Shown piece by piece: positions 4,233-4,588 of a stretch of 11,141 nt of DNA. The notes under the pieces are model-generated. The model searched no databases and had not been told where the DNA came from. It saw nothing but the letters and a program-made list of their open reading frames with translations. Source of the DNA: a virus (taxonomy: Duplodnaviria; Heunggongvirae; Uroviricota; Caudoviricetes); the IMG/VR virus record IMGVR_UViG_2529293240_000017; one strand, written 5' to 3'. Numbering within the stretch: the first letter of the stretch is position 1; the number at the start of each line of letters is the position of its first letter. The translations under genes were made by a program, and so were the position numbers.

Positions 4233-4568
4233 ATGAAGTGGATTGTGATTGATACAGTTATCCAGCCATCATGCGGAATATCTTTTTCAGTCATATGGAG
4301 TAAAATAAAATTAATAATCTGGTATCAATCGGATGCTTTCTTACCTCCTGAAAGTATATTTACACTGACTCACACAGGCATCATGCTCAATAACAAAGTG
4401 CTACCTGTAACCATTTACAACGTAGTACCATTCAATAAAACATTCTGGAATTTAATCAAAAACAGCCAGGAATGCCCTACAAATACAGATAACGTATTGA
4501 ATGAATGCTTTAATAACCGTTGCACTCTGCAAATATGTCCTTATGGACTAAAACAACAAAGTCCATAA
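4233..4568 (+). CDS. hypothetical protein, 111 aa, AT-rich, divergent from the late operon
   Basis: ORF with AGGAAA 6 nt upstream of the ATG. Six ATA codons. An 11-bp perfect hairpin (4538-4548 / 4561-4571) overlaps the stop codon. No recognisable family. Confidence 0.3.
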
Positions 4569-4588
4569 GGAGTTTACTCACATCTGAC

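Follow-up and report, generated by a model that had tools for sequence, protein, structure and literature searches.

The window, an 11,141-nt stretch of DNA from IMG/VR virus record IMGVR_UViG_2529293240_000017 (Caudoviricetes), is a decayed, IS-cut prophage remnant that has kept the accessory gene iraL. From 3316 to 9036 it is 98.6% identical to a lambdoid prophage, with the minus-strand genes hokD, rem, DUF968, RusA, Q, tRNA(CAT), tRNA-Arg(TCT) and DUF3927 in that order, then iraL on the plus strand, and then a DUF1737 fragment, a small ORF and a holin gene back on the minus strand. At 3316 the holin gene is cut short, and the remaining lysis cassette is missing. IS2 is present at 1181-2499, again in inverted orientation at 9822-11141 and partially at 1-322, and fragments of an IS3-family transposase are duplicated at 323-856 and 2564-3096. 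Such a density of IS2 and IS3-family elements may hint at a Shigella-like genome. The features that define the locus are as follows.

3785-3974, minus strand: DUF1737 gene fragment (nanS-p remnant), with which the late operon continues directly downstream of the insert, assigned from PGAP annotation of matching loci
3975-4602, plus strand: low-GC insert (moron) carrying iraL, GC 0.31-0.39, defined by the break in homology with phage phi296
4233-4568, plus strand: iraL coding sequence, encoding an IraM-family RssB anti-adaptor; ATG start, 111 codons and a TAA stop (4566-4568)
4538-4571, plus strand: perfect hairpin of 12 bp with a 10-nt loop (arms 4538-4549 and 4560-4571)
4594-4783, minus strand: STnc100 sRNA gene (Rfam RF02076, 132 bits against a gathering score of 47, full length at model positions 1-206)
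5480-5556, minus strand: tRNA-Arg(TCT), from ARAGORN, Rfam and PGAP names in homologous loci
5658-5733, minus strand: tRNA(CAT), named tRNA-Ile by PGAP, from the same three sources
5910-6698, minus strand: homologue of the late antiterminator Q, by which late-operon direction is defined; it is annotated 'antitermination protein' where the locus is 98.6% identical

An antisense moron beside a convergent sRNA gene

The original prediction, made from the letters and a list of open reading frames, placed a 111-aa ORF antisense to the late operon, and this orientation holds throughout: Q, the tRNAs, STnc100, DUF1737 and the holin remnant all lie on the minus strand. GC content drops locally to 0.31-0.39 at iraL, against about 0.5 in the flanks. 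In phage phi296, which lacks iraL and carries other filler at this place, the sequence shared with the window stops at about 3974, the start codon of the DUF1737/nanS gene, and resumes at about 4603, at the STnc100 terminator. These two breaks delimit a 0.63-kb low-GC insert, and iraL is a discrete moron of that length. It shares with the known morons of the lambdoid Q-to-lysis region (such as stx, bor and lom) an own promoter, deviant GC content, a position between late-operon genes and expression from the prophage, as well as boundaries formed by a terminator and a start codon; unlike them, it runs antisense to the late operon and has no canonical terminator of its own.

On its downstream side the insert abuts a full-length minus-strand copy of STnc100. 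Our terminator scan recovered the intrinsic terminator of this sRNA gene, a GC-rich stem-loop at 4603-4624 with TTTATATTGATTTT behind it. The two genes thus converge, and 22 nt separate the stop-codon hairpin of iraL from the 3' end of STnc100. The GC-rich structure found 35 nt beyond iraL is accordingly the terminator of a complete RF02076 copy, and STnc100 is an opposite-strand neighbour of the ORF and not part of it. STnc100 adjoins an iraL-type gene in the variants at 89% and 76% identity, and it is present in phi296 without iraL as well; it therefore belongs to the late region and not to the insert. In a lysogen, its terminator would shield iraL from convergent transcription in the late direction. 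PGAP places a partial 'hypothetical protein' opposite STnc100 in related genomes, which is probably spurious.

Several further reading frames in the window were noted in passing. An ORF at 9097-9381 (minus strand) encodes a RelE/StbE-family toxin (TIGR02385, E = 1e-14), and a possible antitoxin ORF lies directly upstream of it at 9381-9620 on the same strand; both are outside the match to the reference prophage. A 117-codon ORF at 5016-5369 (minus strand), located between tRNA-Arg and DUF3927, matches no NCBIfam model and is left unannotated by PGAP in the matching genome; it is probably not a gene.

Identity, conservation and function of iraL

The ORF itself proved real, running on the plus strand from an ATG at 4233 through 111 codons to its TAA, and the proposed ribosome-binding site (AGGAAA) is found 4 nt before the start codon. 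Its protein shares 111 of 111 residues with IraL of uropathogenic Escherichia coli CFT073 (WP_000871291.1; the comparison locus is the prophage next to potB), compared with only 62% identity over 107 residues with IraM of K-12, and on these grounds of sequence the ORF is iraL rather than a K-12-type iraM. For comparison, the published identity between K-12 IraM and CFT073 IraL is 58.9% (PMC4045071). A profile search placed residues 1-110 in NCBIfam NF007393, 'anti-adapter protein IraM', with 162 bits against a cut-off of 121, and a sequence search matched PDB chain 8twd_A, the crystallised IraM, at E = 9e-32 over residues 1-78. This is the segment that forms the PmrD-like beta-barrel core of IraM, and the window protein is predicted to contain the same core. 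No Pfam family was found at E <= 0.01 in an hmmscan of the window protein, and PF11183 (PmrD) is precomputed on its database relatives. The original prediction had called for homology searches on the product; they gave a decisive answer for a gene that had gone unrecognised in it.

At the locus level, the window copy agrees with CFT073 iraL in its setting (a lambdoid prophage, with Q/tRNAs to one side and DUF1737-holin to the other), in its -10 element, its hairpin and the downstream STnc100 terminator, and in its 5' UTR save for one substitution. It differs in lacking 1 bp of the probable -35 region and in carrying two substitutions in promoter and UTR, and IS elements have cut the window prophage, unlike that of CFT073, within the holin gene. 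K-12 IraM (YcgW) belongs to the same family, has the PmrD-like core and the RssB-contact residues, and likewise acts on RssB to stabilise sigma-S, with a different promoter and a different genomic context.

Beyond these two strains, the 656-nt iraL locus was found in 1428 of 5426 complete E. coli genomes (megablast, at least 95% identity over at least 80% coverage), where PGAP names the gene IraM. Other lambdoid prophages carry intact homologues at 89%, 76%, 66% and 60% identity, with the Q/tRNA region on one side, DUF1737(nanS)-holin on the other and the orientation unchanged, and relatives are encoded in 46 phage records, at least 32 of which are Stx2a, Stx2c or Stx2k phages at 72-74% identity. 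Some Stx2 phages carry an IraL-like gene right after stxB-STnc100. The gene order in such phages is stxA-stxB-STnc100-(iraL-like, antisense)-nanS-holin, with the iraL-like gene 72-76% identical and mostly unannotated (for instance at 3206-3541 of locus L005, and in locus L006). Comparison with five relatives gave dN/dS values of 0.13-0.28, and iraL is under purifying selection.

These data bear directly on whether the ORF might be a chance open frame, unexpressed, in an AT-rich spacer. The coding sequence does have a low GC content (0.35, with flanks at about 0.5) and many rare ATA codons, and the Pfam search assigned it to no family at the threshold used. Against this, its protein is identical to an experimentally characterised IraL and scores above the NCBIfam cut-off, its dN/dS is low, the gene is intact and conserved in more than 1,400 genomes and the 46 phage records, and its transcription start has been mapped. 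Absent or frameshifted homologues, which the original prediction had named as the mark of a chance ORF, are not what we found: homologues at 60-98% identity are intact, in the same place and in the same orientation. We consider the chance-ORF reading refuted, with a probability close to nil. That the ORF is iraL, a prophage moron encoding a small IraM/PmrD-like anti-adaptor, is by far the best explanation of the locus as a whole, and we hold it with very high confidence. The gene is already known, and it stands here in its usual prophage position.

The ATA-rich composition that had been noted for the ORF was borne out in 6 of its 13 isoleucine codons. A prophage tRNA(CAT), which PGAP calls a tRNA-Ile (an AUA reader), lies 1.1 kb from iraL and next to tRNA-Arg(TCT). 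The ATA-rich gene and the nearby AUA-reading tRNA may represent a codon-tRNA match within the prophage.

What is known of the protein's function comes from CFT073, where IraL raised both the level and the stability of sigma-S in log phase (Hryckowian 2014, mBio, PMC4045071). [quoted passage not shown] By way of the identical CFT073 protein, RssB binding and protection of sigma-S from ClpXP may be attributed to the window copy. In IraM, residues 1-78 form the PmrD-like barrel and suffice for complex formation with RssB, the contacts being made by C14, F18, W30, I61 and Y62, while the C-terminal tail is flexible and dispensable for complex formation (PMC10844676). All five contact residues are conserved in the window protein.

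A separate observation concerns the tail. Across nine family members (54-100% identity), four cysteines (C81, C92, C97 and C102) and an ICPYG motif do not vary (window 4473-4547, IraL residues 81-105). This invariance contrasts with the description of the tail as poorly conserved and flexible, and the C-x10-C-x4-C-x4-C spacing in IraL suggests a metal site.

Promoter architecture and the AT-rich spacer

Upstream of the gene, the spacer contains the following elements.

4200-4232, plus strand: iraL 5' UTR, with its start at 4200 taken from published 5'-RACE and the Shine-Dalgarno sequence AGGAAA at 4223-4228
4187-4192, plus strand: probable -10 hexamer TATACT, 7 nt upstream of the mapped start
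4165-4174, plus strand: probable -35 region, GGTTTACATTC in CFT073 (TTTACA) and GGTTTA-ATTC in the window, with a 1-bp deletion after 4170
4137-4157, plus strand: copy 2 of a direct repeat, CAACATCAGAAAAATAATTCT, at -63 to -43 of the promoter
4122-4138, minus strand: PhoP-box-like direct repeat TGTTTA-TTGTT-TATTTA, at -78 to -62 of the iraL promoter
3983-4003, plus strand: copy 1 of the direct repeat, CACCATCTGAAAAATAATTCT, abutting the ribosome-binding region and start of the minus-strand DUF1737 gene

The original prediction held that an antisense gene here, if real, depends on a promoter of its own within the AT-rich spacer, and the published transcript end falls there. The iraL 5'-RACE sequence, ACATCACCAGCAAGGCATAAACAAGGAAACCA (PMC4045071), agrees fully with CFT073, where it stops one base short of the ATG, and matches the window at 4200-4231 with one mismatch. 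This would place the start of the iraL transcript at about 4200 in the window, within the spacer and 33 nt ahead of the ATG. We relied on this sequence for placing the promoter because the hits of a sigma-70 consensus scan, namely TAAACA-17-AATAAT (4126-4154) and an intragenic site, do not fit a start at 4200 and were rejected. With the start so placed, TATACT at 4187-4192 is probably the -10 element of iraL; either TATACT or TATGAT stands at the aligned position in six of six family promoters. iraL would accordingly be transcribed from its own sigma-70-type promoter.

The probable -35 region at 4165-4174 is where the window departs most from its relatives. A (T/A/G)TTACA element is present in CFT073 and in the 89%, 76% and 60% variants, and the window copy has lost its C. 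The deletion allele, searched as an exact 43-mer, occurs in 166 of 1446 promoter-carrying complete E. coli genomes (about 11%). Two substitutions relative to CFT073 are present as well, at -1 of the window promoter and within the 5' UTR, and the exact 86-nt promoter and UTR sequence of the window was found in none of the 5426 complete E. coli genomes. The expression level of the window iraL copy is uncertain, given the 1-bp deletion in its probable -35. At the very base deleted from the window, phage 640R1 carries a C>T change.

The spacer does contain the 13-bp direct repeat previously reported in it, GAAAAATAATTCT, although the copies lie at 3991-4003 and 4145-4157, 1-2 nt from where they had been put. 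The repeat extends to 21 nt with 19 of 21 matches (3983-4003 and 4137-4157), and an exact 13-mer repeat arose in 0.9% of spacers in a Markov simulation. Within copy 2, the A-tract at 4147-4150 is invariant in all six family promoters, and this A/T-rich copy may, judging solely by its position, act like a UP element. A fragment spanning -100 to +33 complemented a CFT073 iraL deletion (PMC4045071); copy 1 falls outside it. A Fur box and an IHF site were considered for the 13-nt repeat and set aside as poor matches, as judged by eye.

Searching the window for the PhoP box (T/G)GTTTA-N5-(T/G)GTTTA with at most one mismatch returned a single match, the TGTTTA-N5-TATTTA at 4122-4138, where 0.20 are expected per window. 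At the homologous site, the 76% Stx-phage variant has a perfect PhoP box (locus L005, 3093-3109, minus strand) and the E. albertii variant has two mismatches; the segment is deleted from the 89% variant and absent from the 60% variant. Our literature search found no paper linking iraL to PhoP, and the putative PhoP box at the iraL promoter is put forward as a hypothesis, not a finding.

This box raises the question of whether the gene, instead of being the log-phase IraL, is a genuine orthologue of IraM that PhoP/PhoQ induces when Mg2+ is scarce. K-12 iraM is PhoP-dependent (reviewed in PMC10948607), PGAP and some phage records use the names IraM or 'RpoS stabilizer during Mg starvation', and the box-like repeat at -78 to -62 becomes perfect in the 76% variant. 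[quoted passage not shown] We judge an IraM orthologue of this kind to be unlikely, and the identification as IraL is retained below.

The stop-codon hairpin

At its 3' end, iraL runs into a perfect stem-loop. The arms reported in the original prediction, 11 bp at 4538-4548 and 4561-4571, are exact, and one more T-A pair closes inside them, so that the element has a 12-bp stem and a 10-nt loop in place of the 11 bp and 12 nt first given. Also as described there, the TAA stop (4566-4568) lies within the 3' arm. The RNA fold has a free energy of -17.5 kcal/mol (z = -4.3), which none of 200 shuffled sequences equalled; the hairpin is the only perfect one of at least 10 bp in the window, and a first-order Markov simulation yields 0.005 hairpins of at least 12 bp per 11 kb. 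The iraL hairpin is real and non-random, far beyond chance.

Much of its sequence is also coding, within the region for the C-terminal tail. The 5' arm, TCCTTATGGACT, encodes C-P-Y-G-L, while Q-Q-S-P and the stop come from the loop and 3' arm. The residues of the 5' arm are part of a motif, including CPYG, that is invariant in nine family members, and the conservation of this arm is accounted for by protein constraint alone. IraM-type proteins end at CPYGLK, whereas iraL-type proteins add QQSP, and the TAA stop is the complement of the TTA inside the CCT-TAT of the 5' arm. In the simplest history, an inverted duplication of the CPYGL-coding segment would have created the stem, the QQSP tail and the stop codon together.

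Conservation of the hairpin in related sequences, which had been proposed as a check, turned out to be poor, and the original prediction had given the element too much weight. Counted by hand from the alignment and folds, 7 of 12 stem pairs are kept in the 89% variant and 9 of 12 in the 76% variant (one of these nine being G.U). The substitutions in the 5' arm include the synonymous TAT>TAC and GGA>GGG, those in the 3' arm turn AAGGA into AATTA or AATAA, and none is compensated. The 12-bp hairpin is absent from K-12 iraM, the E. albertii variant and the 60% variant; K-12 iraM has only a short GCCCAUAUGGGC palindrome and, about 60 nt downstream, a separate canonical terminator. Within E. coli, by comparison, the 69-nt hairpin segment occurs unchanged in 694 genomes and with a single difference in 681, the sampled differences comprising T98I, outside the stem, and A4547G, which is inside the stem, synonymous and compatible with G.U pairing. 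In E. coli FCI23 (locus L016, about 585-634), an IS1 ends at the boundary of loop and 3' arm, so that iraL is replaced while the 3' arm and STnc100 are intact.

A functional Rho-independent terminator, selected to stop iraL before it runs antisense into STnc100, would be an obvious role for such an element. Its 12-bp stem is perfect and stable, it sits directly behind the coding region with STnc100 22 nt further on, it is exact in those 694 genomes, and A4547G keeps the pairing. The details fit less well. Only 5 of 12 pairs are G-C, the loop of 10 nt exceeds the 3-8 nt expected of terminators, the tail after the stem (GUUUACUC) has four U in eight bases where our terminator scan requires at least five, and the scan of the window did not list 4538-4571. 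No covariation of the kind expected of a terminator was seen among the 89% and 76% variants, K-12 iraM, the E. albertii variant and the 60% variant; instead, the stem decays in the first two of these without compensatory changes. Moreover, a terminating ribosome would unwind the stem because the stop codon sits inside its 3' arm, and the 5' arm would be conserved in any case, as it encodes the invariant CPYG. The hairpin is not a canonical terminator, and we regard a selected terminator function as doubtful.

Nor do we favour a DNA-level site, such as a protein operator, a recombination site or an IS target, in place of an RNA element, and we put its probability very low. The 34-bp palindrome has perfect dyad symmetry and coincides in FCI23 with the IS1 junction at the loop/3'-arm boundary, but a single junction is anecdotal, the palindrome is seen only together with iraL, A4547G spoils the DNA symmetry while the RNA still pairs, and no partner protein gene is evident. 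Rather, we infer that the hairpin is a 3' stem-loop specific to the iraL lineage and not a functional element of the whole family. It is probably not under selection and possibly neutral; as the 3' stem-loop of iraL mRNA, it may serve as a weak terminator or as a barrier to 3' exonucleases.

Proposed role and significance

The mechanism has been shown for the identical protein in CFT073: IraL occupies the N-terminal receiver domain of the adaptor RssB, and RssB so bound cannot deliver sigma-S (RpoS) to the ClpXP protease, with the result that sigma-S is stabilised in exponential growth. Recognition of iraL in the window confirms a known accessory gene, and three modest additions to the literature consulted follow: the limits of the moron at the STnc100 terminator and the DUF1737/nanS start codon; the stop-codon hairpin as a lineage-specific and probably unselected element; and the natural promoter variants of iraL, including the -35 deletion allele, along with the PhoP-box-like motif.

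A more far-reaching and rather improbable scheme, taken jointly in all its parts, is that iraL-type genes, including the 72-76% variants just downstream of stx2AB-STnc100, combine a PhoP-responsive promoter, with the repeat at -78 to -62 as its candidate site, and convergent STnc100 wiring, the stop-codon hairpin limiting mutual antisense read-through. If this were true, lysogeny by such phages would make the stability of sigma-S in pathogenic E. coli depend in part on PhoPQ/Mg2+ signalling and on an sRNA of phage origin. Independently of that scheme, IraL helps account for the high RpoS observed during growth in some pathogenic E. coli and Shigella.
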